Positions 1-47,509 of a stretch of 64,000 nt of DNA are shown in pieces; the first letter of the stretch is position 1, and each line of letters starts with the position of its first letter. The DNA is from Candidatus Daviesbacteria bacterium. GTDB lineage: Bacteria > Patescibacteriota > Microgenomatia > Daviesbacterales > UBA10151. The translations under genes were made by a program, and so were the position numbers. The notes under the pieces were generated by a model, which saw nothing but the letters and a program-made list of their open reading frames with translations, had not been told where the DNA came from and ran no database searches. The stretch is from positions 212,550 to 276,549 of the forward strand of contig JAQUSJ010000001.1 in the NCBI GenBank assembly GCA_028715175.1. Direction: 5' to 3'.

Positions 1-1011
1 AGAAGAATTTTGGTGGAACTGCCCGGATTAAAAGATGCTTCCGCTGCTGCTAATTTGGTGGGGAAAACAGCTCAATTGGATTTTCGGGAATTGCCTGCCA
101 GCTTGTCTGCCCAGGAAATTGAAGCTACTAAATCAGGCATGCCGATAGTAGCTTTTGCCAAACAGACCGGTTTAACCGGTGCTGATTTAAAAAAAGCTCA
201 GGTTACTTTTGGAGGAGGTCGAGGAGCAAAAAGCGGACCGCAAGTAGCGATTGAGTTTACTGTCGAGGGTGCTAAGAAATTTGCGGAAATTACCAGAAGG
301 AATATAAATAGACCTTTAGCTATATTTTTGGATAATGAACTTATTTCTGCCCCGAATGTTGCTCAAGAGATTGACGGAGGGAATGCCGTTATTACCGGAC
401 AATTTACAACCGAAGAGGCTAAAGATTTGGCTATTGAACTTAATGCCGGCGCGCTGCCTGTACCCATAAAATTAATCAGCCAACATTTTGTCGGTCCCAC
501 GCTTGGTCAGGAATCAATTAATAAAAGTGTTGTTGCAGGAGCTATAGGACTTATGGTGATTAGTCTATATATGGCAGCTTTTTATGGCATTTTAGGACTG
601 GTTGCTGACGGGGCTTTAGTTATTTATACACTTTTAGTGCTGGCAATTTTTAAAACCGGTTTTTTTATTCCGCAATTACAATTTACTCTGACTTTGGCAG
701 GAATTGCCGGGTTTATATTATCAATTGGAATGGCGGTTGACGCCAACATTTTAATTTTCGAAAGAATGAAGGAGGAAATCCGTTGGGGGAAAACTAAACA
801 GGTAGCTCTGGAGCTAGGATTTAAAAGAGCTTGGTCTTCAATTTGGGCGTCAAATGTTTCCTCGCTTTTGACTGCTATTATTCTTTATGGGATGGGGACA
901 TCTTTGATCCGGGGGTTTGCCATAACTTTGGCAATTGGGGTTTTGGTTTCCATGTTTACAGCAGTTGTGGTGACCAGGACTTTTTTGGGATATTTAATAC
1001 GAGATAAGTAA
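1..1011 (+). CDS. secD: protein translocase subunit SecD (5' end cut by window edge)
   Basis: Open frame from nt 1 with no upstream stop; C-terminal SecD/SecF membrane domain (FKTGFFIPQ...AVDANILIFERMKEE); secF lies downstream. Confidence 0.85.
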   Translation, partial: RRILVELPGLKDASAAANLVGKTAQLDFRELPASLSAQEIEATKSGMPIVAFAKQTGLTGADLKKAQVTFGGGRGAKSGPQVAIEFTVEGAKKFAEITRRNINRPLAIFLDNELISAPNVAQEIDGGNAVITGQFTTEEAKDLAIELNAGALPVPIKLISQHFVGPTLGQESINKSVVAGAIGLMVISLYMAAFYGILGLVADGALVIYTLLVLAIFKTGFFIPQLQFTLTLAGIAGFILSIGMAVDANILIFERMKEEIRWGKTKQVALELGFKRAWSSIWASNVSSLLTAIILYGMGTSLIRGFAITLAIGVLVSMFTAVVVTRTFLGYLIRDK

Positions 1012-1012
1012 A

Positions 1013-1885
1013 ATGAACTTTACAAGCACGAGCCCTCATTATGAATATTTACGAAAAAAATGGACCGGCCGCCATCGCGCTATCCAAAATAAGTTTTGGG
1101 AAAAACATGGCGAATCCTTGAAACATTTAGCGCTAGGTTCACTCGGAGGATTGATGTTGCTGGCTGCGCCCCATCAGCCGCAATTGCTATCACAAAATTT
1201 AATCGTAAGCAGTAAAAGTGCGCTTAAAGGTTTTGACCGGAATGTCCTACTTGCCAAAGTTTTATCTGATAATGTACCTCCAGAGGTCAGGCCGCTAGAC
1301 CCGCTAGAGGAAAAAAATATTACCGATATTTTATCTCGTAATCTTGGTTTTAAAGTGGTAACACAGCTTAATAATATAAGATTAAACAGGAATTATGGTT
1401 TAATAGGAGGAGAGCAGCATTTATACCGTTATCCGGGTGATAACTTATATGCTCATGCAGATGCCACATCTGATTGGGCGAATTATGGTGATGCAGGAAT
1501 CGCTCCGGGATTAGGCGCTTGGGGTTATTTCGCACCCTCAAAGACAAGTTTTACAGAGACGGATAAACAAAAAGAGCGTTATTATCTGGCGATTCAAACA
1601 TTCCTGGCTCCGGGTTTTGCGGAAAATTTTGCCAGATACAGAGATTTTTTTAAATTTAGAAAAATGCTGGTGGTAAATCCGAAGACCGGTCAGGCAGTTG
1701 TGGCAGTTATTGGTGATGCCGGTCCGGCAGAATGGACGGGTAAACATCTGGGAGGATCGCCAGAAGTAATGAATGCAATAGGTTTGGCAACCGGATCAAG
1801 AAAAGGCCCGGTACTGTATTTTTTTATAGATGATCCGGAGAATGAGCTACCTTTAGGACCGGTTAGCGTCAGGAGTGAAGCATGA
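1013..1885 (+). CDS. hypothetical membrane-anchored protein; C-terminal segment (VVAVIGDAGPAEWTGKHLGGSPEVMNAIGL) weakly resembles RlpA/3D-type double-psi beta-barrel domains
   Basis: 290-aa ORF with one N-terminal TM segment (LALGSLGGLMLLAAP); starts 1 nt after the secD stop; domain resemblance comes from reading the motif only. Confidence 0.5.
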   Translation: MNFTSTSPHYEYLRKKWTGRHRAIQNKFWEKHGESLKHLALGSLGGLMLLAAPHQPQLLSQNLIVSSKSALKGFDRNVLLAKVLSDNVPPEVRPLDPLEEKNITDILSRNLGFKVVTQLNNIRLNRNYGLIGGEQHLYRYPGDNLYAHADATSDWANYGDAGIAPGLGAWGYFAPSKTSFTETDKQKERYYLAIQTFLAPGFAENFARYRDFFKFRKMLVVNPKTGQAVVAVIGDAGPAEWTGKHLGGSPEVMNAIGLATGSRKGPVLYFFIDDPENELPLGPVSVRSEA

Positions 1886-2214
1886 CTAGAACTTTTTTCT
1901 ACAGCCATTTAATTGAGATAGAATCAATTATTATTGAACTTGATAAGTTGGATTTGTCTCCAGAACAAAAAGAGCACCTTGCCAATTTAATAGATTCCAG
2001 TTTACATCATACTATTTTGGATGCAGTTTTATCCGAATTAACGCCGGCGGATAAAAAAGTTTTTCTGCAATCTCTGAAGGAAGATAATCATAATAAAATT
2101 TGGAAGTTTTTAAATGAAAAAATTGATAGCGTTGAAGAGAAAATTAAAAAAACAGCGAACGATCTTAAAAACGAACTCCACAAAGATTTAAAAGAAGCTA
2201 AGAAGTATAAATGA
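1882..2214 (+). CDS. hypothetical small charged/coiled-coil protein
   Basis: 110-aa ORF with 4-nt start/stop overlaps to both neighbours (operon-like) between secD and secF. Confidence 0.45.
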   Translation: MTRTFFYSHLIEIESIIIELDKLDLSPEQKEHLANLIDSSLHHTILDAVLSELTPADKKVFLQSLKEDNHNKIWKFLNEKIDSVEEKIKKTANDLKNELHKDLKEAKKYK

Positions 2215-3098
2215 AAAATTTAATGCGATTTAAATCATTATATTTTATTTTTTCATTACTTATAATTTTGCCGGGGTTATATTATTTAATTACTTCAGGA
2301 CTCCGACTAGGAATAGATTTTACCGGAGGAGCTTTGCTTGAATATCAATTTGAAAAAAATATAGACCCAAATGATTTGAAACAACAGATTTCTTCCCAAG
2401 GCATTGAGGTCGGTCAAATTAATTCCTCTTCAAATAATATTTATATAATCCGTACAAAGCCGGTAGATCAAAGTAAAATAAACCAACTTAAATTATCTTT
2501 GGGTGAAAAATTTGGTCAGGTAGAAGAACGCAGAGTAGAATTTGTGGGGCCGGTTGTCGGAGCTGAACTTAGTCAAAAAGCATTCATTGCAGTGGCGTTA
2601 GCATCTTTGGTAATTGTTTTATACATAGCTTTTTCTTTTAGAAAAATACCCAGACCGCAATCTTCGTGGAGATTTGGCATTACTGCGGTTGTGGCACTGA
2701 TCCACGATATATTGATAGTTGTGGGACTTTTTGCAATGCTAGGAAAATTTCTTGGGGTGGAAATTGATACTCTTTCCGTGACGGCGCTTCTCACGGTCAT
2801 AGGTTTTTCCGTGCATGATACTATTGTTGTTTTTGATAGGATAAGAGAAAATTTGACTAAACATATTGGCAAGAAATTCATCGATGTTGCTAATTTGTCA
2901 GTTATGCAGACTTTAGATAGGTCTTTAAACACCTCTTTGACGGTAGTTTTTGTGCTGTTGGCAATGCTACTTTTTGGCGGAGAAACTCTAAGATGGTTTG
3001 TGTTAACACTGCTGGTTGGTATTGTTTCCGGTACTTATTCTTCAATCTTTAATGCCACAGCATTACTCGTTTGGTGGGAAGAAAAATTAGGCCATTGA
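2211..3098 (+). CDS. secF: protein translocase subunit SecF
   Basis: GIDFTGGALLEYQF motif and SecF membrane domain. Confidence 0.85.
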   Translation: MKNLMRFKSLYFIFSLLIILPGLYYLITSGLRLGIDFTGGALLEYQFEKNIDPNDLKQQISSQGIEVGQINSSSNNIYIIRTKPVDQSKINQLKLSLGEKFGQVEERRVEFVGPVVGAELSQKAFIAVALASLVIVLYIAFSFRKIPRPQSSWRFGITAVVALIHDILIVVGLFAMLGKFLGVEIDTLSVTALLTVIGFSVHDTIVVFDRIRENLTKHIGKKFIDVANLSVMQTLDRSLNTSLTVVFVLLAMLLFGGETLRWFVLTLLVGIVSGTYSSIFNATALLVWWEEKLGH

Positions 3099-3128
3099 TA
3101 TTTGCTATAAATTGAATATAATTCTTTC

Positions 3129-3473
3129 ATGGAGAAAATAGAGCTAAGAAGTGTGCCCCCCAAAATAATAATACAAGCATATCTTAGTGAAGCAAGTGGA
3201 GGGTTTGGCTCATACGGTGGATTAGATGGTAAGGGTCCTATGGTAACTATTGATCGAGAAAAAGGGAGAATAGTTGTATTGCGTGGCTCTGATTTTAGAG
3301 GAAGATTAAGAAGATGGAAAGAATCAGGAGGAGAAAGTCTATGTCCATTACAACAAAAGCCTACGCTTGCAGTTTTAAATGCATTTGTTAATCACGATCC
3401 TCGCGCTTTCTATGATAGAAGGATTAATCAAATAGTAATGATACCTAGTGAAGTTGCTGTATCCGTTGGATGA
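3129..3473 (+). CDS. hypothetical protein (weak call)
   Basis: 114-aa ORF with no Shine-Dalgarno; 3' end overlaps the convergent cca gene by 29 nt. Confidence 0.25.
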   Translation: MEKIELRSVPPKIIIQAYLSEASGGFGSYGGLDGKGPMVTIDREKGRIVVLRGSDFRGRLRRWKESGGESLCPLQQKPTLAVLNAFVNHDPRAFYDRRINQIVMIPSEVAVSVG

Positions 3474-4845
3474 GATAATCTTTATTATTCTTTGACGAGT
3501 TTTCTAGGACTTCTTCAAAAAGTTTTTGTAGGATTTCACCAACTTTTGGGCCGGGTTTTAAATTAAGTTCTTTCATTACGTCATTACCATTAACTTTTAA
3601 ATCAGAAATAGTAAATGGTTTTTTGAGAACTTCTTTAATTCTTTTTTGAAACTCTTCCATCCTCCAGGAAACAGCTTTTTGAGTTCCGCCTCCCAAGCGA
3701 TCTCCAATCCGTAATGCTATCATGTCCTCGATGTTTTCTATTCCGACATTTTTAATAAATCTGCGGATAGCAGAATCAGTTTGCCGTTCATCAACTGTAA
3801 ACAAATGCCACCTCACAAGACGATATAATTTGTCAGTTTGTTTATTTGATAAATTAAATCTTTTGGCAATATCTAATACTAATTTGCCGCCAACAACATC
3901 GTGATTGTAAAAAGTAACATTTCCATCAGGTTCTGTTTTAACTGTTTTAGTTTTCCCGATATCATGCAAAAGCGCAGCAAACCTGACTAGTGGATCAGTG
4001 GATGGTGTATGTTTTAAAGTTAATAGGGAGTGTTCTCCAATGTCATAGATCCGGTCGTGCTTTGGTCCTTTTTGGACAATGCCAAAACATTTTTCCAGTT
4101 CCGGTAAGATAATTTGTAATATTCCCGCCTCCCTAAGTTTTATCATACCTATGTAAGGACTGCCTGAAACAAGGATTTTAAATAATTCATCATGTATTCG
4201 CTCAAAGGCGATTTCTTTAAGTAAGGTGGCATTTTCCAAAATTGCAGAATGAGTTTTTGGGTCAATTTCAAATTCCAGCTCTGAAGCTAACCTGATAGCC
4301 CTCATTAGACGCAGAGCATCTTCTTTAAACCTTTTATCAGGTTCTCCAACAGATCTGATTATTTTATTCTTAATATCATCCTGACCGTTAAAAGGGTCAA
4401 CTATATTTATGGATCCCGTTGTACTCAGACACGACTTATCAAGTTCGGGATAACAGTGGAGGGCTATTGCATTAATGGTAAAATCGCGTCTTGCCAGGTC
4501 TTCCTCTATTTGATCTGTCCAGGAAACTTCTACCGGGTGGCGGTGGTCTTTATAAACTCCTTCTTTTCTCATAGTTGTAATCTCGAAAATTCCACCTCCG
4601 AGGTGTTTTGTGTCTTTTGACGGAATTCCTACTGTGCCAAATTTATTATCATAAAATCCATCAGGAAAAAGTTTAAGGATTTCTTCTGGTTTGGCATCAG
4701 TTGTGAAGTCCCAATCAGAAATCCGCCGGCTGGCGGATCCCATCAGAAGATCTCTAACTGCCCCTCCCACAATATAAATTTGGAAATTAGATTGCTGCAA
4801 TTTATTTAAGATATTTTTTACCTCAGTTGGTAGTGTATAATTCAT
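3445..4845 (-). CDS. cca: CCA-adding tRNA nucleotidyltransferase (polyA-polymerase head domain plus HD domain)
   Basis: GGAVRDLLMG...DWDFTT nucleotidyltransferase motifs and an HD motif (LLHDIGK). Confidence 0.8.
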   Translation of the reverse strand: MNYTLPTEVKNILNKLQQSNFQIYIVGGAVRDLLMGSASRRISDWDFTTDAKPEEILKLFPDGFYDNKFGTVGIPSKDTKHLGGGIFEITTMRKEGVYKDHRHPVEVSWTDQIEEDLARRDFTINAIALHCYPELDKSCLSTTGSINIVDPFNGQDDIKNKIIRSVGEPDKRFKEDALRLMRAIRLASELEFEIDPKTHSAILENATLLKEIAFERIHDELFKILVSGSPYIGMIKLREAGILQIILPELEKCFGIVQKGPKHDRIYDIGEHSLLTLKHTPSTDPLVRFAALLHDIGKTKTVKTEPDGNVTFYNHDVVGGKLVLDIAKRFNLSNKQTDKLYRLVRWHLFTVDERQTDSAIRRFIKNVGIENIEDMIALRIGDRLGGGTQKAVSWRMEEFQKRIKEVLKKPFTISDLKVNGNDVMKELNLKPGPKVGEILQKLFEEVLENSSKNNKDYLIQRIQQLH

Positions 4846-4860
4846 GATGTTATTGTACTA

Positions 4861-4873
4861 CACCTCCGAGGTG
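4861..4873. repeat. half copy (CACCTCCGAGGTG) of the dispersed hairpin repeat, located 7 nt upstream of the recJ ATG
   Basis: Identical to the 3' arm plus CA of the full copies at 8280, 39355 and 42163; its GAGGTG could serve as the recJ Shine-Dalgarno. Confidence 0.5.
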
Positions 4874-4880
4874 AAATAGC

Positions 4881-6527
4881 ATGAAGTGGAAAATAGCCCC
4901 CAGGAAATCTGATAATTTAGTCGAGCAACTTTTAATCAACCGTGGTATTAAAACCGAAAAAGAAAAAGAGCAATTTTTCCATCCTAAAATTTCCGACTTT
5001 GCTAGTGATTTACAAATTCCCGGTATCAAAAGGGCCAATAAAAGAATTTTACAAGCAATCGAAAGAGGCGAGTTAATAATAGTTTATGGTGATTATGATG
5101 CGGATGGAATATGCGCCGCGGCTGTTTTATACAAAGGCTTAACTTCAATCGGAGCAAAAGTGCTGCCTTACATTCCACATAGAGAAAAAGAAGGGTATGG
5201 GATATCAAATATAGGACTTCAGTCTGTAAAGAATTCCGGCGCTGTAGTAGTGGTGACAGTTGATAATGGAATTGCGGCAGCAGATCAGGCAAAATTTGCC
5301 AAGAGCTTAGGTTTAGATTTAATAATTACGGATCACCATATTCCTGCCGAGCGGAAAAATAAACCTTTATGGCCGGATGCATATGCAATAATTCATTCAA
5401 CTAAGATGTGCGGAGCGGCAGTTGCCTGGTGTTTAATTAAGGATTTGATCGAAAAAGAGTTAGCTACGGAGTTGTTGCAATTTGTAGCAATTGCGACAAT
5501 TTGTGATCTTATTCCGTTGTTTGATTTAAACAGGGCATTTGTTTTTGAAGGGCTAAAAATTTTAAACCAGACAAAAAATCCGGGATTACTTTCATTGATA
5601 AAGGAATCCGGTATTTCTTTAGGAGAGATAGGATCTTTTGAGGTGGGTTATATAGTCGGTCCGAGGTTAAATGCCATGGGTAGACTAGAGCATGCTATTG
5701 ATTCCCTCAGGCTTCTTTGTACTAAAGATCCGGTTAAAGCAAAAAGATTGGCAAAACTTTTAGCTGACACAAATATCACTCGTCAAAAAATGACCATGGA
5801 AGCACTGGAGCAGGCAAAATTATTGATTGATAAACAAAAAAAGATTCATGTTATCTTTAGCAAAGATTGGTCTGCCGGAATTATTGGTTTAGTAGCCGGC
5901 AGGGTTTGCGAGGAATACTCGCGTCCGGCAATTGCCATATCTGTTGGTGAAGAGATTTCTAAAGGTTCTGCCCGGTCTATTGACGGGATAAATATTATTG
6001 AGTTGATCAGGAAACATTCTGACATTTTAATTGATGCGGGAGGGCATCCTGGCGCAGCCGGTTTTTCTCTTTTAAGCAAACATATTGAAGTGTTTAAGAA
6101 AAGATTAGAGGAAATTGCGATAGCATTACCGGAGGAGAAAAAAGTTTTGGAAATTGATGCAGAAGTTATTAGTAAACAGTTAAATAAAACTTTAATTCAT
6201 GAGTTACAAAAATTTGAGCCCTTTGGATTGGGCAATAGAAGACCAGTTTTTGTAACTAAAAATATGCAGGTTTCTGATATTAGGACAGTGGGGGAAGGAA
6301 AACATTTAAAATTTAAGGTCTCTCCCTCTGTCATCCTGAGCGGAGCGCAGCGAAGCGAAGGATCTAATGCGATTGATGCTATTGCCTTTGGAATGGGAGA
6401 TTGGGTGAATCTCTTAAAATCCGGCCAGATGCTAAACTTGGCATATAATTTAGAGTTGGATACTTATAATGGTAATGATAAAGTGCAATTAAAAGTTAAA
6501 GATATAGGTGTTAATCCTTCGGCGTAA
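4881..6527 (+). CDS. recJ: single-stranded-DNA-specific exonuclease RecJ
   Basis: DHH motifs (YGDYDADGICAAAVL, ITDHH) and DHHA1 region. Confidence 0.85.
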   Translation: MKWKIAPRKSDNLVEQLLINRGIKTEKEKEQFFHPKISDFASDLQIPGIKRANKRILQAIERGELIIVYGDYDADGICAAAVLYKGLTSIGAKVLPYIPHREKEGYGISNIGLQSVKNSGAVVVVTVDNGIAAADQAKFAKSLGLDLIITDHHIPAERKNKPLWPDAYAIIHSTKMCGAAVAWCLIKDLIEKELATELLQFVAIATICDLIPLFDLNRAFVFEGLKILNQTKNPGLLSLIKESGISLGEIGSFEVGYIVGPRLNAMGRLEHAIDSLRLLCTKDPVKAKRLAKLLADTNITRQKMTMEALEQAKLLIDKQKKIHVIFSKDWSAGIIGLVAGRVCEEYSRPAIAISVGEEISKGSARSIDGINIIELIRKHSDILIDAGGHPGAAGFSLLSKHIEVFKKRLEEIAIALPEEKKVLEIDAEVISKQLNKTLIHELQKFEPFGLGNRRPVFVTKNMQVSDIRTVGEGKHLKFKVSPSVILSGAQRSEGSNAIDAIAFGMGDWVNLLKSGQMLNLAYNLELDTYNGNDKVQLKVKDIGVNPSA

Positions 6528-8117: not shown

Positions 8118-9530
8118 ATGCAGAGTCGCACTTTAATTTTGGATTGTAAGAATAAAATAGGCAAAGAAGTTAAAATTTGCGGCTGGGTACATACCAGACG
8201 AGACCACGGCAAGATTCTATTTTTAGATGTTTTGGATAGATCTGGAATCATTCAGGTTGTAGTATCTCCAGACAGTGTCCACCTCGAAGGAGTCAAAGTC
8301 CACCTTCGAGGTGAAGAGTTGCAGGTGCAACGCTACCTGGAAGGTGGGTTGCATGCAATACATCCGCAAGATGTTGTTTGTATAACTGGGAGAGTAAACA
8401 AACGTCCGGAAAACCTTATTAACAAAAATATTCCTACAGGAGAAATAGAGATTTCAGCAAAAGAAATTGAAGTTTTATCTAAAGCGCAGGAGTTACCTTT
8501 TGATATGGGAGGTAAAGACTTAGATTTACAGCTGCCTACTTTACTTGATTATCGCTCCCTTACTTTGCGCCACCCGAAAGTCAAAGCCATTTTTAAAATT
8601 CAAGAAAGTTTACTAGAGGGATTTAGAAAAGCTGCCAAAGATTTGGGATGCACAGAGATTATAGTGCCGACGATTGTGGCAGGAGCGACAGAAGGCGGTG
8701 CGGAAGTTTTTAGAATAGACTATTTTGAACACAAAGCTTACCTTTCCCAAAGTCCCCAACTTTACAAACAAATGCTGGTTCCGGTATACGAGCGGGTTTT
8801 TACCATAGCCAAGGCTTACCGTGCTGAGCCATCAGTGACGACCAGGCATTTGACTGAAAGCACTCAAATGGATGTTGAGATTGGTTTTGTGGAATTTGAA
8901 GAGTTACTGGATATTTTGGAGAATGCAGCGATTAAGATGTTAAAAATCGCTGAAGAAGAATGTAAAGAGATTTTATCCGAGTTTGGAGTGGAGAAGACTG
9001 CTTTTGGCTCGCCTCGCTCCGCGGGCGGAGCGGGCAAAATTCCCAGGCTTACTTTAAGGGAAGCGCAAGATATTCTCTTAAAAGAATTTGGGCGGGACAA
9101 CAGAAAGGAAAAAGATCTAACGCCGCAGGATGAAGCAGATCTTTGTAAATGGGCAAAGAAAAGTCACGGTAGTGATTTTGTGACGGTGACACATTTTCCC
9201 ACCAATGCCAAACCATTTTACACAATGCCGGATCCGAAAAATCCGGAATATTCCTTAAGTTATGATTTATTATTCAGGGGAGTGGAAATTATGAGCGGCA
9301 GTCAGAGGATTAATGATTATCAACAGTTGGTTGATTCAATCAAATCAAGAGGTATGGATCCAAAATCTTTTGAGATGTATTTGCAGGCTTTTAAATTTGG
9401 TATGCCTCCGGAAGGTGGATTCTCCTTTGGGTTGGAAAGAATTACTATGCATGTTTTGAATTTAGCTAATGTTAGAGAAGCCAGTCTTTTCCCGAGAGAT
9501 ATGGAAAGAGTAGACACCAGGTTGAGATGA
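8118..9530 (+). CDS. aspS: aspartate--tRNA ligase, class IIb archaeal/eukaryotic type (AsnRS not excluded)
   Basis: OB-fold N-terminus (KICGWVHTRRDHGKILF), QSPQLYKQ, class II motifs (AYRAE, GSQR); true start probably the ATG at 8118 (MQSRTLIL...) rather than the ORF-track start at 8076. Confidence 0.75.
   Translation: MQSRTLILDCKNKIGKEVKICGWVHTRRDHGKILFLDVLDRSGIIQVVVSPDSVHLEGVKVHLRGEELQVQRYLEGGLHAIHPQDVVCITGRVNKRPENLINKNIPTGEIEISAKEIEVLSKAQELPFDMGGKDLDLQLPTLLDYRSLTLRHPKVKAIFKIQESLLEGFRKAAKDLGCTEIIVPTIVAGATEGGAEVFRIDYFEHKAYLSQSPQLYKQMLVPVYERVFTIAKAYRAEPSVTTRHLTESTQMDVEIGFVEFEELLDILENAAIKMLKIAEEECKEILSEFGVEKTAFGSPRSAGGAGKIPRLTLREAQDILLKEFGRDNRKEKDLTPQDEADLCKWAKKSHGSDFVTVTHFPTNAKPFYTMPDPKNPEYSLSYDLLFRGVEIMSGSQRINDYQQLVDSIKSRGMDPKSFEMYLQAFKFGMPPEGGFSFGLERITMHVLNLANVREASLFPRDMERVDTRLR
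8280..8313. repeat. dispersed hairpin repeat, copy inside aspS (CACCTCGAAGG-AGTCAAAGTCCA-CCTTCGAGGTG), in frame, encoding ...HLEGVKVHLRGE...
   Basis: 11-bp inverted repeat with 12-nt loop; both arms carry a compensatory change relative to the other copies (G>A paired with C>T). Confidence 0.7.
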
Positions 9531-38853: not shown

Positions 38854-39120
38854 ATGTTAGGATTTAGCTGGAAAAGATTTTTGATTACTTTGGGGTTAAG
38901 TGTGTTGGTGTGGGTAGTGAGTGGTTTTACTCAAGCTTTGATCGGATTTCCGAATTACTTTACAATTTTCCATACATGTAGTTTAACTGGTTACCCTATT
39001 GCTTTGTGTATATCTAGTAACGATCAGGCTAAAGTAGCTTTGATATCTTTTGTAAATATTATCCTGTGGTTTTGGGTTATCCATTTATTTTGGGGATTGT
39101 TTCAGAAACGTGGCAAGTAA
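38854..39120 (+). CDS. hypothetical small membrane protein
   Basis: 88-aa hydrophobic ORF; 3' end overlaps the convergent large gene. Confidence 0.35.
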   Translation: MLGFSWKRFLITLGLSVLVWVVSGFTQALIGFPNYFTIFHTCSLTGYPIALCISSNDQAKVALISFVNIILWFWVIHLFWGLFQKRGK

Positions 39121-42078
39121 ACCAAAAGAGGCTAAGGTTATTATGCCTCCGGAAACTATCAATAAACCGCCAAGAAATTCTTCCGCTGGCTTTTCATCAT
39201 TTTTATTGGAGATTAAATTTTTCTGTTCTTCCAGGACTTTGCTGACATTGATTTGATCGGAAATATGGTTGGGGTTTTGGAAGGTAATTCCCAAGACGTC
39301 CGGCGTAGACAAGATGGAGTTTGATGATTGATTTGTGGTTTCTCTCTTGGAGTTCACCTCGGAGGAGTCAGAGTCCACCTCCGAGGTGCTAACTGTGTTG
39401 GAGGTAGAATTTGATGAAGTACCAGAGGAGATGATTGAAGTGGGGGTTTGTGTAGGAGTTGGGATGAGAGTAGGAGACGGGGACACAGCAATTTCTATAG
39501 TGATAGATTGGGGGATTTCTTCGTTACCCAAGTTATCAATTGATTTGATTTGGATAGTGGTTGTTCCCGGATTAGAAATAGTGAACGGCCCGGTATATGT
39601 CTGTACTGTTTGACCATTATCTAAGCTATATTCAATCCTTAGTATTCCTGATTCAGTATCGCTTCCGGTTAAAGTTATAGTAACTGGTCCAGTATAAACA
39701 CCTGAAGAATCTTTAGTACCGGAAATTTGAATATTGGTAACGGGCGGTGTTTGGTCTAATGCTGCAGAACCGGTAGTTTCGCTGGTAGGATTAATGGGGA
39801 TATTTATTTCGCTTGACGAATCAGGATAAAAATTAAGCGAAGGGGAAGTATCTAAAGCAGGATCAAGAGTAAATTCTACTTTGCCAACTTGAGGAATAGC
39901 AATGTCTTTATAAATTGTGGTTTTGGATATTTTATCTTGTTTGTAGGTCCTTTTTTTGAGGCTAGTAGTTTTAGAGTTATTGGACGGATTTTTACGAGTT
40001 GTTTTTACTTTTACTTTTGCAGCTTTCTTTTTAACAAAAGCGTGTTTGGTATTGCCGGAAGTGGTACAAGAGACATCCGGAATATTTTCTTCTATTTCTC
40101 CTTTGTCATTTAAACCGCAGTGGCGGTTTTGATCATCGTATAAATCTAATTCTCCATCATCTAAGGAAATTTGTTCGCCTTCCAGAACAATTTTTTCGTC
40201 TTTTACTTCAACTGGTAAGGAATTATCATCATTCAAAATTGCTTTGACGGTTTGCATGGCTGTTCCATTGCTGGAAACTAGATCACCATGCTCTTGCTCT
40301 ACATAATAAATTTTGGTTGCACCTGAGATATCAATACTGTCGTTTTTAAGTGAAGCGCTGTACAGGGGGACTGTACCATCGCCATTAACAAAAACTTCGT
40401 CTCTTTTGGGTATTAAATTAATTGGCCAGGTTACCCACCAAGTTTCGTGGATTTGGCCTAAGGTGGATTGACTAGAGCCAACTATTTCGTAAACCTTTAC
40501 ATCATTAGTCTGATTAAACAATGAATCTTGTAAGGTATGAAATTCTTCCCCAATATTAAATGCTGTCATATTATGCCCTAGATTAGATAGAAGTGTTTTT
40601 GTTTGATTAAAATTTAATGCCCCGATTTCATTATTATTATCAATATCTCTATCATCTTTGTATGGATAAGAAATTGTATTATCTGTATTGGTATAGAAAT
40701 CGAAATATTTTGAAGAGGGTAGTAATTCAAATATGCTTGGTAAATTTTGAGAAGTATCTTTAGTTTCGCTGGGTGGAATACCGAGTTTAAATAATCTAAA
40801 ATCATAGCCTAGCCATGATCCATATCTTAAGGTTTTGAGACTATCTACTGCTCCTAAATGTGGAACTCCCAGTTCTATCAATTTATTGACCTTAGCAGCT
40901 TTTACTGAGTCTGAAATATAATACCTTGCTACCAGGCCTCCCATAGAGTGGACTACCAGATTAACTTGAGATTGACCGGAAGCTATTTTGGCGGTTTCAA
41001 TGAGATTGTCTAAACTGTCTTTAGTGTTTCTGACATCTTTTCTCCAATCATATGGAAAGGTAAAGAAATTTTTACCTTTCTCGTACCCCATTCCGGTAAA
41101 AAACGAATCAATATCAGAATACCCAAAAGAAGTTAAGTCTCCTGTTAAACTTAAAGCAGCCTCTGGGGTTTGCCCATCGGTTTTTAACCGTAAAATATCA
41201 AAATAATCATCATCTCCCAGTTCCGCAGCCTTATCCTGATTTACCCAAATCTTTTCATTGCTGGAATAAGCATGAGAATATGTTCCGCCATGGCCGTCTT
41301 GAGCAGACCAAATAATATCCTGAGATGCCTTTATCTCTGACCCGCCAATTCCCGGAATAAAAATTACCGGTAATCTTGGAGGTGGAGGTGGAGGCGAAGT
41401 GTTACTCAAGATAAAATATAAATCATCTTTAGTGCTGGAAAATACATTGCAACCAGAATTTGAAGTTTGAGAATTCCAGATATATTGAGAAGCGTTACAG
41501 AATCCGTTATCAAAAGCATATCTTAAGCCTCCGCCGCTAAATAAATCAGATCCCCCATGTCCTCCCGGACCATAAGCAGCGCTTGTAAATAATATTTTAC
41601 CGCTGCCCGCGTTACCATTATTGGCATTGGTTATAAATATTAAGTACCGGTGTCCAGGGATGAAATTATAATTCCGGCAGGAAAAATCAATGGTAACATC
41701 TTCGTATCCGATTGGGACGCCAGTTGTTGTAAAAGTTAAACCGTCTAATGGGTCATTATGGTTAGTTCCAGGACAGCCAATTATATATGAATTATTATTA
41801 TCCTTGTCGTAGATACGGGTGTTTCTGGTGGTAAAATCAAATTGATTTAGATTGGTCCGGGAAGTACTAACTCTGAACGTGAAAGAGGATGCGGTGCCGG
41901 ATAAATTATTTCCTAATTCTTGTAAAGCCTCCCAAACAGTTAGTGGATCGCTCCAGGTTTGAGTTTGTTCCGCTACAGAAACAGCAGAGATATTAGAAGT
42001 TGAGGCCACAAAAAGTCCTGCTACAAAAATAAGCCGTATATATTGGCGAAATGGCAGTTTTATATTCACTTTTAACAC
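39085..42078 (-). CDS. large surface protein: signal peptide, lipase/acyltransferase-like alpha/beta-hydrolase domain (GIGGSEI...LVVHSMGGLVARYY), Ig-like domain, S/T-rich linker, C-terminal TM anchor
   Basis: GxSxG nucleophile elbow (HSMGG) of PGAP1/LCAT-like lipases; C-terminal hydrophobic stretch GGLLIVSGGIITLASFGLLATFL plus KQSPK. Confidence 0.6.
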   Translation of the reverse strand: MLKVNIKLPFRQYIRLIFVAGLFVASTSNISAVSVAEQTQTWSDPLTVWEALQELGNNLSGTASSFTFRVSTSRTNLNQFDFTTRNTRIYDKDNNNSYIIGCPGTNHNDPLDGLTFTTTGVPIGYEDVTIDFSCRNYNFIPGHRYLIFITNANNGNAGSGKILFTSAAYGPGGHGGSDLFSGGGLRYAFDNGFCNASQYIWNSQTSNSGCNVFSSTKDDLYFILSNTSPPPPPPRLPVIFIPGIGGSEIKASQDIIWSAQDGHGGTYSHAYSSNEKIWVNQDKAAELGDDDYFDILRLKTDGQTPEAALSLTGDLTSFGYSDIDSFFTGMGYEKGKNFFTFPYDWRKDVRNTKDSLDNLIETAKIASGQSQVNLVVHSMGGLVARYYISDSVKAAKVNKLIELGVPHLGAVDSLKTLRYGSWLGYDFRLFKLGIPPSETKDTSQNLPSIFELLPSSKYFDFYTNTDNTISYPYKDDRDIDNNNEIGALNFNQTKTLLSNLGHNMTAFNIGEEFHTLQDSLFNQTNDVKVYEIVGSSQSTLGQIHETWWVTWPINLIPKRDEVFVNGDGTVPLYSASLKNDSIDISGATKIYYVEQEHGDLVSSNGTAMQTVKAILNDDNSLPVEVKDEKIVLEGEQISLDDGELDLYDDQNRHCGLNDKGEIEENIPDVSCTTSGNTKHAFVKKKAAKVKVKTTRKNPSNNSKTTSLKKRTYKQDKISKTTIYKDIAIPQVGKVEFTLDPALDTSPSLNFYPDSSSEINIPINPTSETTGSAALDQTPPVTNIQISGTKDSSGVYTGPVTITLTGSDTESGILRIEYSLDNGQTVQTYTGPFTISNPGTTTIQIKSIDNLGNEEIPQSITIEIAVSPSPTLIPTPTQTPTSIISSGTSSNSTSNTVSTSEVDSDSSEVNSKRETTNQSSNSILSTPDVLGITFQNPNHISDQINVSKVLEEQKNLISNKNDEKPAEEFLGGLLIVSGGIITLASFGLLATFLKQSPK
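39355..39388. repeat. dispersed hairpin repeat copy inside the lipase-like gene (CACCTCGGAGG-AGTCAGAGTCCA-CCTCCGAGGTG), in frame (…STSEVDSDSSEV… on the minus strand)
   Basis: Near-identical to the copy at 42163. Confidence 0.7.
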
Positions 42079-42162
42079 TAGAATTATTGATCGTGAAAAG
42101 GGTCAATACAAGATGTCTTTAAGATGCTTTAAGGTAACAAACAAATACAGATTTACCCTGTC

Positions 42163-42196
42163 CACCTCGGAGGAGTCAAAGCCCACCTCCGAGGTG
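42163..42196. repeat. dispersed hairpin repeat copy, intergenic, abutting the ppiB -10 box (GAGGTG-TATAAT)
   Basis: CACCTCGGAGG-AGTCAAAGCCCA-CCTCCGAGGTG followed by TATAAT at about 42198 and the ppiB ATG at 42210. Confidence 0.7.
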
Positions 42197-43034: not shown

Positions 43035-43475
43035 ATGAAATGTCCATTTTGCCAAAGTAATTTGAGTAAAGTTAAAGACAAAAGAGCAGTTCTGCGTCGC
43101 GGAGAGATAAGACGTCGTCGGGAATGTTTAAAATGTTCGAAGCGTTTTACAACTTACGAAATTCTGGCTGAGATAGAAATTTTGGTAATTAAAAAAGACG
43201 GGAAAAAGGAACCATATGAACGGGAAAAATTGCAGAGAGGATTGAATAGAGCTTTAGAGAAAAGACCGGGTGTTGACAGGGTTGAAAGCATTCTTGATAG
43301 AATAGAAAGCCGGATTAGAACTAAGCACTTGCAGGAAATTCCCTCGCAAACTTTGGGGAAGTGGGTATTATCAGAGTTGAAAAAACTAGATCCGGTTGCC
43401 TATTTGCGGTTTGCAAGCGTTTACCGGACTTTTTCTGACCCAAAGGATTTTAAAAAAGAGCTGGAAACCTTATGA
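43035..43475 (+). CDS. nrdR: transcriptional repressor NrdR
   Basis: N-terminal zinc ribbon (CPFC...CLKC) plus ATP-cone. Confidence 0.85.
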   Translation: MKCPFCQSNLSKVKDKRAVLRRGEIRRRRECLKCSKRFTTYEILAEIEILVIKKDGKKEPYEREKLQRGLNRALEKRPGVDRVESILDRIESRIRTKHLQEIPSQTLGKWVLSELKKLDPVAYLRFASVYRTFSDPKDFKKELETL

Positions 43476-46105
43476 AAAGAATCAGAAACAAAAACAAAAT
43501 AGCAGCTAAGCCCACTCTGCAGGTGGTGGCTGTGCCTAGAGTTCATGACAGGAGAAAGACTAATGGTGAAGATCGATTTAAGAGGTTGGATAAAAATGGT
43601 CGCACTTTTGAAACAAGATTTATTCCGCGCTATAAATTTATACCAGAGTTGCCGGGCGGTTTGCCTGAACCAACATTCTCTGAGAGTGCAAATAAAATTT
43701 TGAATGAAAGATATCTTCTAAAGAGCAGTAATTTGGAAATAGCTGAAACTGTTGCGGAGAGATTTTGGCATATTGCTTTTGATATTGCCTCAGGTGATAT
43801 TGATTTTGGTGCAACTACAAAAAATGTGACAGAGTTGGCAAAAAGTTTCTATACCATGATGGTGCGCCAGGAATTTTTGCCTAATTCTCCGACAATAATG
43901 AATGCCGGAAAACAAAACGGGTTGCAGTATTCTGCCTGTTTTGTTTTGCCGATTGGGGATTCGCTGCCGGAAATTTTTGATACCATAAAATATGCGGCTT
44001 TGATTCACCAAACAGGCGGAGGAACGGGTTTTGCTTTTTCCAGGCTTCGCCCGGCAGGGAGCATTGTCAATACCACAGGCGGTGTGGCCTCCGGACCGGT
44101 TTCGTTTTTGCGGGTATTTAATGCTGCTACAGAATCTATTAAGCAGGGCGGTACGAGACGTGGGGCGAATATGGGAATTTTGCGGGTTGACCACCCCGAT
44201 ATTCTGGAATTTATCAGGTGCAAGGCAGAATTGGATGATTTAAATAAACCGGTATATGAAGGTATCGCCCAGTTCTTGCCGGATTCCTCTGTCAGAGACT
44301 TTGTCAAGACTTTGCTTTTGGATAAGCAGATTGCCAATTTTAATATCTCTGTAGCGCTGACAAATAAATTTATGGAAGCGCTGGCAAAAGGCAAAGATTA
44401 TGATTTGGTGAATCCCGGCAACGGAGAGGTAGTTGGCAAATTAAACTCAAGAGAGGTTTTTGATGAGATTGTGGAACGGGCTTGGAAAACAGGTGATCCA
44501 GGACTTATATTTATTGACAGGATTAATGATTCACCTTCCAATCCGGTGCCATCTTTAGAAACTATTGAATCTACTAATCCATGCGGTGAACAACCTCTGG
44601 CTCCCTGGGACGCATGTAATTTAGGATCCATAAATTTGGGTAAATTTGTCCGCCAGTTGGCGGATGGGAGTTTGGATGTGGATTGGGAAAGATTGGAACA
44701 AACTACCAAACTGGCGGTACATTTTCTGGATAATGTGGTTCAGACAAATCCCTTTACCTTAAAACAAATTTATGATGAAGTGCATCAAAACAGAAGGATA
44801 GGTCTTGGGGTAATGGGTTTTGCCGACATGTTGTTTAAGCTAAAGATTTCATATAACTCTGTGGAAGCGTTGAGCCTGGCCGGCAGACTAATGAAGTTCA
44901 TTAATGAAGTAGGACACGGCGCTTCGCAAGGTCTGGCAGTGGAAAGAGGTCCTTTTCCAAACTGGACCCTGTCAATTTATGCCGATAAACACTCTTCTGC
45001 TTTCAAAAACAGGCCTGAATCCAGTGCTTATGTTGGCGGAAGAAAAATCAGGAATTCAACAATTACAACCATTGCCCCAACAGGCACGATTTCTATTATT
45101 GGGGATTGTTCCTCCGGAATTGAGCCGGTATTTGCGCTTAGCTTTATCCATAAAGCTAAAGCTAAAGGTGATGAATACAGGACATTAACCATCGCCAATC
45201 AAACTTTTGCCGATATTGCTAAAGAACAGGGTTTTTGGAGCGAAGACCTGGCAGCTAAGGTACTTGAGCATGGGTCTGTTAGAAATATCCCTGATGTGCC
45301 GGAAGACTGGCAGAAAGTTTTTGTGACGGCCCAGGAGATTGAGCCAGTGTGGCATGTTAGAATGCAGGCAGCTTTCCAGGCATATACGGATAATGGGGTT
45401 TCTAAAACAATAAACCTTCCCGGTATCGCAACGCGTGATGATGTAAGGACTGCATACATGATGGCTTATGAGACAGGTTGTAACGGGATAACAATTTATA
45501 GGGACGGTTCCAAAAGTACCCAGGTTTTAAATGTTTCTTCCAGTTTGAATGAACAAGTCGAATCTGAATCGGCTCCCATTGCCGAGAGGCCGATGATCCT
45601 CCGGGGTAGGACTTACAAGGTTTCAACGCCTGTGGGGGAGGCTTTTATTACTGTTAACAGGGATGCAAGCGGTCAACCTTTTGAAGTTTTTGTAACTGTC
45701 GGGAGAGCCGGTATGCACACTATGGCAGATGCGGAAGCTATGGGACGACTGGTTTCCTTATCGCTTCGTTTGGCAAGAGGAGCAAAAGAAACAGATCCAA
45801 AAGCAGTAGCATTGAAAATTGTCGGACAACTGCGGGGGATTGGTGGAGCATCATCAGTAGGTTTTGGAAAAAATAGGGTGCAGAGTTTGGCAGATGCAAT
45901 TGCCAAAGTTTTGGCAGAAGACTTAGCGGAGACTGGAACGGAGGAGACTGCGGAAACTTTACCGCAGTCAAATACAGGTACAGATGACGTGACACCGGCT
46001 CTATCACACAACCAGGCAGATCTTTGTCCGGAATGCGGCAGTGTTTCTTTCGTGATGGAAGAAGGCTGCAAAAAATGTCACTCATGTGGATACTCCATGT
46101 GTTAA
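43472..46105 (+). CDS. nrdJ: adenosylcobalamin-dependent (class II) ribonucleotide reductase, with ~70-aa basic N-terminal extension and C-terminal Cys4 zinc finger
   Basis: NSPTIMNAGK, CFVL, active-site segments; C-terminal CPECG...CKKCHSCG. Confidence 0.8.
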   Translation: MKRIRNKNKIAAKPTLQVVAVPRVHDRRKTNGEDRFKRLDKNGRTFETRFIPRYKFIPELPGGLPEPTFSESANKILNERYLLKSSNLEIAETVAERFWHIAFDIASGDIDFGATTKNVTELAKSFYTMMVRQEFLPNSPTIMNAGKQNGLQYSACFVLPIGDSLPEIFDTIKYAALIHQTGGGTGFAFSRLRPAGSIVNTTGGVASGPVSFLRVFNAATESIKQGGTRRGANMGILRVDHPDILEFIRCKAELDDLNKPVYEGIAQFLPDSSVRDFVKTLLLDKQIANFNISVALTNKFMEALAKGKDYDLVNPGNGEVVGKLNSREVFDEIVERAWKTGDPGLIFIDRINDSPSNPVPSLETIESTNPCGEQPLAPWDACNLGSINLGKFVRQLADGSLDVDWERLEQTTKLAVHFLDNVVQTNPFTLKQIYDEVHQNRRIGLGVMGFADMLFKLKISYNSVEALSLAGRLMKFINEVGHGASQGLAVERGPFPNWTLSIYADKHSSAFKNRPESSAYVGGRKIRNSTITTIAPTGTISIIGDCSSGIEPVFALSFIHKAKAKGDEYRTLTIANQTFADIAKEQGFWSEDLAAKVLEHGSVRNIPDVPEDWQKVFVTAQEIEPVWHVRMQAAFQAYTDNGVSKTINLPGIATRDDVRTAYMMAYETGCNGITIYRDGSKSTQVLNVSSSLNEQVESESAPIAERPMILRGRTYKVSTPVGEAFITVNRDASGQPFEVFVTVGRAGMHTMADAEAMGRLVSLSLRLARGAKETDPKAVALKIVGQLRGIGGASSVGFGKNRVQSLADAIAKVLAEDLAETGTEETAETLPQSNTGTDDVTPALSHNQADLCPECGSVSFVMEEGCKKCHSCGYSMC

Positions 46106-46135
46106 GCTTTCCACCCCAAGGGCACAAAAATATCT

Positions 46136-46177
46136 AAATATCCGCAGGTGTCAATACAAATCCACCCCAAGGGTGGA
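46136..46177. repeat. 42-bp direct repeat, left copy (AAATATCCGCAGGTGTCAATACAAATCCACCCCAAGGGTGGA)
   Basis: Direct reading. Confidence 0.8.
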
Positions 46178-46190
46178 TACGGCTGTCAGT

Positions 46191-46841
46191 CTAGTCTTCA
46201 ACATCTAATAGTTGGTGTTTTATTAATTCCAATTTCTGGGCATAATCAACTTGGTCTAGAACAAATCGCTGATAGTGTTTGGATGATTTGAAGAGACATA
46301 GGATAGCTTCTTTATTACAAATTCCGTCGGTATCATTCTCAATGTATTCCCTATAAGAAGACCAGCGATATTGATTTAGATCTTTTACCAAAAATGAAGC
46401 AATTGGATTTAAATGGATGTAACGGGAAGCATGGCTTAATTGCTCATCAGATTCTATAAGTACTGCCTTAAATTCTCCTTGCAGCAGAGGACCAACACGG
46501 TTATATTTTACATTGTAATATTTAGTATAACTGTTGCTTAGCTTGCTAATAAATTCTGTAATTCCACCATCTTTTAACTGTTTTATTAGGAAATGAAAAT
46601 GATTTGACATGAGGCAATAACAGATTATTTCAACTATTTTTTTGCTTGAATCAGGTTTGAAAATTGAATAAGCGAGAAATTTAGAAAGTTTTGGCTTGGG
46701 TCCTGCAAGCTGGTAGTAACACATTGTTTTAATGAGTCGTGAATAATCCCAACTTTTTTCAAAAATACTTCTTTTTTCTACACCACGATTGTAAATGTGG
46801 TAATATTGCCCGTTTACAAATGGAAAAATTCTAGAAGGCAT
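46191..46841 (-). CDS. REP-associated tyrosine transposase (RAYT) / IS200-like HUH Y1 transposase
   Basis: HUH motif (MSNHFHFLI) and C-terminal catalytic Tyr motif (SHASRYIHLNPI). Confidence 0.7.
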   Translation of the reverse strand: MPSRIFPFVNGQYYHIYNRGVEKRSIFEKSWDYSRLIKTMCYYQLAGPKPKLSKFLAYSIFKPDSSKKIVEIICYCLMSNHFHFLIKQLKDGGITEFISKLSNSYTKYYNVKYNRVGPLLQGEFKAVLIESDEQLSHASRYIHLNPIASFLVKDLNQYRWSSYREYIENDTDGICNKEAILCLFKSSKHYQRFVLDQVDYAQKLELIKHQLLDVED

Positions 46842-46859
46842 CTGAAGCTAGCATAGCTT

Positions 46860-46901
46860 AAATATCCGCAGGTGTCAATACCAATCCACCCCAAGGGTGG
46901 A
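46860..46901. repeat. 42-bp direct repeat, right copy (one mismatch versus the left copy)
   Basis: Direct reading. Confidence 0.8.
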
Positions 46902-46937
46902 CATTTTACTATAGACATGGTTTGTTAAAATCAGCTC

Positions 46938-47471
46938 ATGAATAAAGAAAAAGGTTTGGTTATTTTATATACCGGTGAGGGGAAGGGGAAAACCACGGCT
47001 GCCTTGGGTTTGGTTCTTCGGGCTGTGGGCCATCAGAAAAAGTGTCTGGTAGTCCAGTTCGGAAAAGCCTGGTTTACCGGTGAGCTTGAAGGGGTTAGAC
47101 ATCTTAAGCCTTATGTCAAATTTATCCAGGGAGGTAAAGGGTTTGTCAAGATTTTAGGAGACGATCTTCCCCTAAAAGAACACAAACAGGTTGCTAATGA
47201 CACCTTTAAGCTATTATCTAAAGAGATTATCTCTGGAAAATGGGATGTGGTGGTGGCAGATGAAATAATTGGGGCAACCTCATCCAGACTTCTTCCCGAG
47301 AGCTTGGTTTTGAAATTAATTGCAGATAAACCTGAGGAGTTGGATTTAGTATTAACCGGTCACCATGCATCAAAGAAATTAATTGGGATGGCGGATTTAG
47401 TAACCGAAATGCGGGAAGCAAAACATCCTTACCAAAAAGGAATTCTGGCAAAAAAGGGTATTGACTTTTAG
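46938..47471 (+). CDS. cobO: ATP:cob(I)alamin adenosyltransferase (CobA/CobO/BtuR type)
   Basis: VILYTGEGKGKTTAALGLVLRAVGHQKKCLVVQFGK P-loop signature. Confidence 0.8.
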   Translation: MNKEKGLVILYTGEGKGKTTAALGLVLRAVGHQKKCLVVQFGKAWFTGELEGVRHLKPYVKFIQGGKGFVKILGDDLPLKEHKQVANDTFKLLSKEIISGKWDVVVADEIIGATSSRLLPESLVLKLIADKPEELDLVLTGHHASKKLIGMADLVTEMREAKHPYQKGILAKKGIDF

Positions 47472-47509
47472 CACTCATTGCACTAAACTGCTAATAGTTT
47501 TAAGAAAAT

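Follow-up and report, generated by a model that had tools for sequence, protein, structure and literature searches.

Between nrdJ and cobO in a genome of Candidatus Daviesbacteria lies a gene on the opposite strand, here called tnp, with nearly the same 43-nt sequence at both of its ends. What kind of element do the gene and its repeats form, does it move, and did it produce the short hairpins found elsewhere in the 64,000-nt stretch of contig that we analyzed (hereafter the window)? Our answer, to which we give a probability of about 70%, is that the locus holds a module of ~0.77 kb, composed of the gene and two 43-nt units, that resembles the REP-associated tyrosine transposases (RAYTs; REP, repetitive extragenic palindrome) of class 2 of the Y1 enzymes. 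Most work on RAYT/REP systems has dealt with complete genomes of Proteobacteria and Cyanobacteria. The module is a new lineage and layout of this known kind of element, in a phylum-level group of the Candidate Phyla Radiation (CPR) for which no systems of this sort seem to have been reported; a full-text literature search turned up no papers linking RAYTs or TnpA_REP to CPR lineages. The parts of the module, and a relic beside it, are the following.

46191 to 46841, minus strand: tnp, encoding a 216-amino-acid (aa) Y1 HUH endonuclease/transposase, RAYT-like class 2 (open reading frame, Pfam, motifs and fold match)
46859 to 46901, minus strand: upstream (left-end) copy of the 43-nt unit, reading on the gene strand hairpin, TTGGTA, then TTGACACCTGCGGATATTTA (direct repeat, 42/43; layout common to all syntenic orthologues)
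46885 to 46901, no strand: hairpin of the upstream unit, TCCACCC-CAA-GGGTGGA, 7-bp stem and 3-nt loop, between the divergent tnp and cobO promoters (folding; compensatory stem changes among orthologues)
46135 to 46177, minus strand: downstream (right-end) copy of the 43-nt unit, beginning 13 nt past the tnp stop codon (direct repeat, 42/43)
46160 to 46178, no strand: hairpin of the downstream unit, 8-bp stem here, followed on the gene strand by TTGTATTG and terminator-like (folding, terminator score)
46110 to 46126, no strand: degenerate third hairpin copy TCCACCCCAAGGG whose 3′ arm has diverged, immediately beyond the right end (sequence match; weak fold)

The tnp protein and its family

A first-pass annotation of the window had proposed that this open reading frame (ORF) carries an HUH motif and a RAYT-type tyrosine motif, and both are borne out. 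Residues 57–143 match Pfam Y1_Tnp (PF01797) with 28.9 bits against a cutoff of 23, which places the protein inside the HUH Y1 family, and the sole NCBIfam match is REP_Tyr_transpos (NF047646; 48.9 bits, profile positions 42–146). The blocks N80-H81-F82-H83 and R140-Y141-I142-H143-L144-N145-P146 and the W160-S-S162 tail, and with them the annotated HFH and RYIHLNP, are invariant in 20 homologues of 68–98% identity. Judged by these invariant catalytic residues, the protein is catalytically intact.

A search of the PDB sequences with a profile of homologues ranked Escherichia coli TnpA_REP (4ER8) first and ISDra2 TnpA next, and the alignment to 4ER8 runs through the HuH, Y, and W-x-S motifs. The AlphaFold model of the protein (predicted local distance difference test score 76, predicted template modeling score 0.76) found the same structure, TnpA_REP bound to a REP hairpin, as the best Foldseek match (E 6e-6; target-normalized template modeling score, TM, 0.65; sequence identity only ~14%), with TM ~0.5 for IS608, ISDra2, and Sulfolobus TnpA. 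In the published classification, Y---NP defines class 2 of TnpA_Y1, the RAYT side, while the IS200 side has Y---Q (PMC6006769). On the NCBIfam match, the ranking of 4ER8, and the Y---NP motif, we class the tnp protein as a class-2 Y1 HUH enzyme that is nearer to RAYT/TnpA_REP than to IS200.

Its motif set (NHFH, (L/F)Q, YIHLNP with the catalytic tyrosine Y141, and WSSY) can be compared with the signature of subclass 2.1, which is NH[YF]H, FQ, Y[IV]HLNP, and an SS tail (Quentin et al. 2018, Table 1, PMC6006769); this subclass equals the Group 1 RAYTs of Bertels and comprises most TIRYTs (PMC6006769). By motif comparison with that table, the protein would fit subclass 2.1/Group 1, which it also resembles in length (216 aa against a median of 238), in low copy number, and in having diverged paralogues. 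In contrast to many proteins of that subclass, a distal C-terminal helix-turn-helix or Bac_DnaA_C-like domain was not detected in the window protein, which has no Pfam match beyond Y1_Tnp at E up to 1; the C-terminus of the model is one long helix (residues 187–215).

The family is large, with 4703 protein clusters at E of 1e-3 or better, nearly all of 211–227 aa. By their annotation, the homologues come from Candidatus Daviesbacteria and other Microgenomates, and at least 588 matches fell in one-genome-per-species contigs of Daviesbacteria, Levybacteria, Curtissbacteria, Shapirobacteria, Gottesmanbacteria, Roizmanbacteria, and others. Many of the contigs behind loci L002–L080 (L numbers denote homologous or related loci) have CPR-type gene content and this Microgenomates gene under the title “uncultured Gammaproteobacteria bacterium,” and such titles look unreliable for taxonomy. 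Contig JACPDA010000004.1 holds two paralogues, L007 and L054, with 66% and 45% identity to the query, respectively, and different flanks. Pairs of diverged Y1 paralogues within ~5–10 kb, each with its own distinct flanking repeat, were seen at L007 with L054, at L035, and at L056.

The flanking units and the nrdJ-cobO junction

The repeats at 46135–46177 and 46859–46901 have the same orientation and are identical at 42 of 43 positions. They had been described before as a 42-bp direct repeat with 41 matches; the repeat, its orientation, and its hairpin stand, and the length is corrected to 43 nt. For the 23-nt arm of the repeat, 0.00 chance matches are expected in the window, and the hairpin 17-mer occurs at exactly two sites in 64 kb, where 0.08 would be expected even with 3 mismatches allowed. 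When the two units were folded as single-stranded DNA, the hairpin was the dominant predicted structure of each (−9 and −7 kcal/mol). The degenerate third copy, also noticed earlier just past the nrdJ stop, is confirmed at its place 4 nt beyond that codon: it keeps the first 13 nt unchanged, has lost the 3′ arm, and folds weakly (−2.5 kcal/mol), with a comparable relic in L003. Rfam, searched over 45500–47500 at E up to 1, gave a spurious long noncoding RNA match and nothing else, so that no known RNA family explains the flanking repeats.

We then read the anatomy of the unit from an alignment of 20 copies from 15 loci. On the gene strand, the unit begins with a foot, usually (A/T)ATG-N, which is followed by a 7-bp GC-rich hairpin, a spacer of 6–7 nt (6 nt in the window), and the arm TTGACACCTGCGGAT. 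The string TTGACACCT and a GGA two bases further on are invariant in 20/20 copies, upstream and downstream alike, and the arm is conserved more strongly than the hairpin. Pairing of the hairpin is kept in 90.7% of cells, with compensatory changes from CG to AU and from CG to UA, and none of 500 shuffles matched the observed pairing or covariation. Among the nrdJ-cobO orthologues, the hairpin types are CCACCC/GGGTGG, ACACCC/GGGTGT, CCACCCC/GGGGTGG, and CCACCTC/GAGGTGG. Ten distinct occupied loci had both flanks readable; the unit is present on both sides in eight of them, and in all eight the stem type is identical between the flanks. L010 and L089 are without a downstream copy. Concerted evolution of the two flanks was considered and rejected: within-genome identity (37–40/42) is barely above the between-genome mean of 86%, and the window upstream unit equals that of L002 at 42/42 positions. 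The claim is therefore limited to a matched hairpin type and does not extend to gene conversion. The 18-nt arm is absent from IMG/VR.

The two neighbors define the site that the module occupies.

43472 to 46105, plus strand: nrdJ, class II B12-dependent ribonucleotide reductase, flanking the insertion site on one side (Pfam Ribonuc_red_lgC, 428.9 bits, and TSCPD)
46938 to 47471, plus strand: cobO, ATP:corrinoid adenosyltransferase, other side of the insertion site (Pfam CobA_CobO_BtuR, 184 bits)

Upstream of nrdJ lies nrdR, and lon follows cobO. We found tnp at nrdJ-cobO in 13 related loci. The order nrdR-nrdJ-tnp (opposite strand)-cobO-lon holds in L002, L003, L004, L006, L008, and L010, with Tnp identities of 62–82%, and also in the metagenome loci L085, L088, L089, L102, L108, and L111. 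At least nine relatives have an empty junction, CobO identity of the relatives with unoccupied sites being 64–79%. The distance from the nrdJ stop to the cobO start is 9–10 nt in L092, L093, L094, and L100 and 37–99 nt in L084, L091, L095, L097, and L103; unrelated inserts of 0.3–0.8 kb occupy the junction in L090, L098, L099, L101, and L106. Hairpin, arm, solo units, or excision footprints were found in none of these unoccupied junctions. Because empty junctions exist, tnp is an insertion into the B12 module, as had been proposed. Since the unoccupied loci have neither hairpin nor arm, the 43-mers are not fixed host regulatory sequence, and the case that would have spoken against an insertion, the same repeats kept without a transposase, is excluded. 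The flanking repeats belong to the tnp gene and not to the host, being present in eight of the ten readable occupied loci and absent at every empty site.

Variable small genes accumulate at the junction (L002, L003, L004, L008, L090, L098, L099, L101, L106, and L122), a hotspot that ranges from a 9-nt operon joint to 0.8-kb inserts and has the Y1 gene always on the cobO side. The small ORFs encode 79–187 aa without Pfam matches; one has an HEVGH zinc-protease-like motif, and short opposite-strand ORFs occur in L099 and L101. Integron-like cassettes were rejected as a description, as the small ORFs between tnp and nrdJ in L002, L003, L004, and L008 are not bounded by hairpins and have no Pfam matches. 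Separately, the nrdJ match is split by 0.9–1.4 kb, at ~residue 184 or ~residues 371–441, in L002, L084, L091, L093, L095, and L097, probably by inteins or other intervening sequences; in the window it is uninterrupted.

The unit also carries predicted expression signals, the first of which is the following.

46850 to 46878, minus strand: predicted tnp promoter (10/12 consensus match; −35 TTGACA at 46873–46878, −10 TATGCT at 46850–46855)

By this consensus match, the upstream unit would supply the −35 box of tnp: TTGACA lies inside the repeat arm, and a 17-nt spacer, the −10 box, and 8 nt lead to the ATG. The −35 box, its spacing, the −10 box, and the 8-nt distance are conserved in seven orthologues. 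Every orthologue has the TTGACA of the upstream arm, 17 nt, a −10-like hexamer (TATGCT, TATATT, TATACT, or TACGAT), and exactly 8 nt to the conserved ATG. As the −10 box sits 8 nt before the ATG, the tnp mRNA would be leaderless. An extended −10 box of cobO, TGTTAAAAT, stands at 46923–46931, 6 nt before the cobO ATG, and suggests a leaderless start there too; before cobO in relatives the motif recurs as TGTTAAAAT, TGTTAGAAT, or GGTAGAAT. The upstream hairpin is ~36 nt from the cobO start codon, and the downstream hairpin with the tail behind it has a terminator-like score. The downstream unit is also promoter-like at 46127–46154 on the minus strand (TTGACA, 16 nt, TATTTT; 10/12) and would drive antisense transcription into the 3′ end of nrdJ.

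These signals invite a purely regulatory reading, in which the repeats are a bidirectional terminator or insulator with a TTGACA-N17 promoter, needed for the control of tnp, nrdJ, and cobO, and the protein is decayed or repurposed. That both hairpins look like terminators, that both TTGACA boxes look like promoters (10/12 each), and that the upstream unit exactly separates the divergent promoters of tnp and cobO, with the spacing conserved, would all fit. However, the 15-nt arm is invariant downstream of the gene too, where no promoter is needed; the hairpin differs from lineage to lineage, but its stem differs in step on the two sides of a gene; and the units move along when the gene relocates and are missing at empty sites, although these retain cobO promoters. 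Moreover, hairpins are dispersed or lie inside coding sequence in other genomes, and the catalytic residues are invariant. We consider this reading very improbable, and we reject a terminator or promoter as the sole explanation in view of the invariant downstream arm and of units that move with the gene.

Relocation and descent of the module

One variant, P0009, is 82% identical to the window protein and is found on 24 contigs from many samples. On all 24, its neighbors are an EamA transporter gene on one side and F420-ligase/glutamine synthetase genes on the other, a site other than nrdJ-cobO. Both of its flanks read TCCACCCTTGGGGTGGA, a 6-nt spacer (ATCGTA upstream, ATTGTA downstream), and then TTGACACCT..GGA. 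The window and P0009 cease to be similar immediately 5′ of the left hairpin and immediately past the GGA of the right arm, and homology to the copy at the other chromosomal site (L112) ends right after ...CCTGCGGA. With the same gene and its two flanking units at a second site in another lineage, the ~0.77-kb repeat-gene-repeat module has evidently been relocated as a whole. A second variant, P0041 (72% identical), occupies the nrdJ-cobO site on 8/8 contigs. As P0009 and P0041 each have a single context, the position of the module is fixed within a population but not between lineages.

Occupied and empty loci are intermingled on the trees of CobO and Lon. The Tnp and Lon trees have in common the grouping of the window with L002 and the outermost place of L010; the congruence of the Tnp tree with its neighbors is weak, so inheritance was not purely vertical. 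Most simply, an ancestral Daviesbacterium acquired the module early, its descendants mostly inherited it vertically, and it was lost or replaced several times. The insertion is old rather than recent and appears to have been passed on mostly by inheritance.

The relocated copy also suits a different reading, in which the 0.77 kb are a minimal, tnpA-only insertion sequence (IS) of the IS200/IS605 type that is autonomous, stays at low copy number, and mainly moves its own gene by single-strand peel-and-paste with precise excision; the dispersed hairpins would be incidental to it. In its favor, both end hairpins are on one strand, like those of IS608 and ISDra2; presence and absence at one site are clean and patchy on the Lon tree; a complete unit stands at a second chromosomal site (82% protein identity), and homologues occur in many contexts; and the gene tree is partly incongruent with those of the neighbors. 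The closest published group, Group 1, is moreover the most IS-like of the five groups kept as RAYTs once Group 6 had been reassigned to IS200 (PMC5581495). The window element has in common with IS608, ISDra2, and IS200 the Pfam Y1_Tnp domain, the fold, a subterminal hairpin at either end on one and the same strand, and relocation as a whole unit, and it is likewise a small single-gene unit without an obvious target-site duplication. The occupied and empty nrdJ-cobO sites have diverged so far from each other that they outline no fixed tetra- or pentanucleotide of the kind 3′ of which IS200/IS605 elements insert. The IS200 end hairpin, too, serves as a transcription signal.

Other observations speak against it. 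The protein has YIHLNP instead of Y[IV]ENQ, its best structural match is the monomeric TnpA_REP, and it is 216 aa long with an extra ~70-aa tail and no tnpB, whereas the IS200-type TnpA of class 1.1 has Y[IV]ENQ and is core only, at about 150 aa (PMC6006769). Both ends of the module carry the same 43-nt sequence. In IS608 and ISDra2, by contrast, the left and right ends differ from each other. Near-identical elements in multiple copies are not seen: tnp is single-copy in the 64 kb, where no second Y1 gene was found, and the two variants that were looked up have one context each (24 contigs for P0009, 8 for P0041). The paralogues on the same contig, L007 and L054, are strongly diverged, and synteny is kept down to 62% protein identity. 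On plasmids or phages, no close homologues were found, the only matches being weak, of ~34% identity or less. The Y motif, the lack of multicopy elements, and the identical ends show that this is not a strict IS200/IS605 element. With identical units at both ends, a single copy, and motifs of class 2, it is better described as RAYT-like than as a classical IS200/IS605 member. An IS of the low-copy kind is unlikely, though the strongest of the competitors.

Dispersed hairpins, mechanism, and meaning

We surveyed the flanks of 80 homologous loci with 37–100% protein identity, 76 of which were evaluable by a strict perfect-stem criterion. Most of the 80 have a short palindrome ~40–60 nt before the ATG and again within ~50 nt past the stop. 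In about 40 of the 76, one perfect-stem hairpin is common to both flanks (positions ~−60 to −40 and +1 to +50); the loop of the matched loci is identical in 27/41, reverse-complemented in 11/41, and different in 3/41. Stem sequences differ by lineage and match between the two flanks of a gene, and TTGAC(A) follows or overlaps the hairpin in many units.

Copies away from the gene are clearly dispersed in L067 and occur at low density in several other loci. In L067, an 86-nt two-hairpin element occurs five times in 5.8 kb (1–5781), in intergenic spaces and at both flanks of the Y1 gene; its two CCACCTCSGAGGTGG hairpins start 71 nt apart around the conserved spacer TAGTGAAAAACGAGGCTAAATTTGAG, and the copies form a very dense family like the paired REPs known as REPINs. 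L010 has a solo hairpin with arm ~3.2 kb from its tnp gene, and extra hairpin copies lie within 10 kb in L009, L034, L052, and L053. In L042, L056, L062, and L066, the lineage’s own hairpin is inserted in frame in the Y1 gene, at ~+163 to +185 in a variable loop before HuH, as TAACGATCCCGTATCGTTA or as a hairpin on an AAGCT-N-AGCTT core. Self-insertion of hairpins into their own gene has been described for subclass 2.4 RAYTs. Hairpin dispersal and in-frame insertion are the behavior expected of RAYT/REP pairs.

The window has dispersed hairpins of a related type.

42160 to 42196, plus strand: 37-nt doublet of CCACCTC-type hairpins, a REPIN-like relative of the flanking unit (two further doublets at 8277–8313 and 39352–39388)
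4593–4605, 4861–4873, and 8333–8347: single CCACCTC-type hairpins, REPIN-like relatives of the flanking unit

The first-pass annotation had recognized a dispersed CACCTC hairpin family, and it is real: nine CCACCTCSGAGGTGG-like hairpins lie at five places, against 0.31 expected. The three 37-nt doublets are 89–92% identical to one another. Folding predicts one 11-bp hairpin for a doublet (−13.2 kcal/mol, z −5.1), with its two REPs inverted relative to each other in the manner of a REPIN. Like the tnp-flanking unit, the doublet spacer holds TTGAC (or CTGAC). The same CCACCTCSGAGGTGG hairpin flanks the same-site orthologues L085, L108, and L010 and the distant homologues L014, L018, L041, and L067. 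That the tnp enzyme or a paralogue mobilizes these hairpins, as had been suggested, is plausible, the link through the orthologues being circumstantial but real. No second Y1 gene to which these hairpins could belong was found in the window. The agent is most likely a CCACCTC-specific variant, either an orthologue or a paralogue, that resides elsewhere in the genome or was formerly at nrdJ-cobO.

Several of these hairpins stand at conspicuous positions. The doublet at 39352–39388 lies in frame in a Ser/Thr-rich linker of a 997-aa surface or lipase-like ORF (39085–42078, minus strand), where it encodes ...TSEVDSDSSEVN...; the coding sequence seems to have tolerated a REP-like insertion there. 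In the hairpin CACCTCC-GAGGTG (4593–4605, 4861–4873, 8333–8347, and 42184–42196), the arm CACCTCC resembles the anti-Shine-Dalgarno sequence of the 16S 3′ end and pairs with a perfect Shine-Dalgarno sequence, GGAGGTG. Copies near starts include GAGGTGA 7 nt before the ATG at 4881 and AAGGTGG 5 nt before the ATG at 8355, and one hairpin is directly followed by TATAAT, 7 nt before the ATG at 42210. CACCTC hairpins may supply or sequester ribosome-binding and promoter signals.

Compared with the REPtron/RAYT systems (E. coli YafM with REPs and bacterial interspersed mosaic elements; 4ER8), the module has the same Y1 HUH core, class-2 Y---NP motif, and serine-containing tail. Its gene is single-copy in the window and flanked by short GC-rich cognate hairpins that differ between lineages, and it appears to be largely inherited at a fixed locus. 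Dispersed two-hairpin elements and in-frame insertions occur in some genomes of the family. It differs in its CPR host, in the evident relocation of the whole module, and in a cognate hairpin that is not dispersed in the 64 kb.

Several observations weigh against a RAYT-like module. The NCBIfam score of 48.9 bits is below the equivalog cutoff of 80. The flanks are direct repeats of a hairpin with an invariant arm and not inverted REP pairs, and the foot (A/T)ATG-N has no GT[AG]G tetranucleotide. No third intact copy of the cognate hairpin TCCACCCCAAGGGTGGA was found within the window, so that high-copy dispersed REPs, the defining trait of RAYTs, are not shown for this genome. Subclass 2.1 has been reported without nearby REP-like sequences, and its TIRYTs have terminal inverted repeats, GGGG[AT][CG]A[CG] (PMC6006769); the Daviesbacteria gene, in contrast, has clear cognate hairpins in direct orientation. 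Pairwise identities of Tnp correlate with those of the neighboring genes at a Spearman coefficient of 0.31–0.40, compared with 0.62 for cobO and lon. Finally, the promoter and terminator roles of the units are consensus matches.

By analogy with TnpA_REP and with IS608 and ISDra2 (PMC6006769, PMC8266576), the protein of the RAYT-like module would bind the folded hairpin on single-stranded DNA and would cut and rejoin at a fixed distance set by foot and arm. Cutting would most likely take place where homology on the gene strand ends, just 5′ of the left hairpin foot and just after the ...GCGGA of the right arm. The module as a whole would move rarely and hairpins alone more often; the CCACCTC doublets would most likely stem not from this exact enzyme but from a present or former orthologue or paralogue that has their specificity. 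The upstream unit may double as the tnp promoter and the downstream hairpin as its terminator.

A bolder version sees the module as a still active halfway form between insertion sequences of the IS200 type and domesticated RAYTs, in which precise self-excision and reinsertion of the 0.77-kb gene would go together with REPIN-like seeding of hairpins across CPR genomes. The arm TTGACACCTGCGGAT would then be both a cleavage or recognition site and a portable −35 box, and each insertion would rewire the transcription of its neighbors, here uncoupling cobO from the nrdR-nrdJ operon. Precise self-excision would explain the clean empty junctions, the patchy occupancy, and the second chromosomal site. 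We regard this version as speculative and improbable.

For the annotation of the window, the RAYT-like module means a resident element that split the nrdJ-cobO operon joint long ago. For the family, it points to a very large Microgenomates (CPR) clade that has the motif signature of a published “REP-less” subclass, yet in which cognate hairpins bound the genes and are densely dispersed in some genomes. The pairs of occupied and empty sites, together with the relocated copy, provide natural material on whether class-2 Y1 enzymes still move themselves. Tiny CPR genomes contain short palindromic repeats, some of them at Shine-Dalgarno and promoter positions, and a part of these repeats may likewise be due to the clade.

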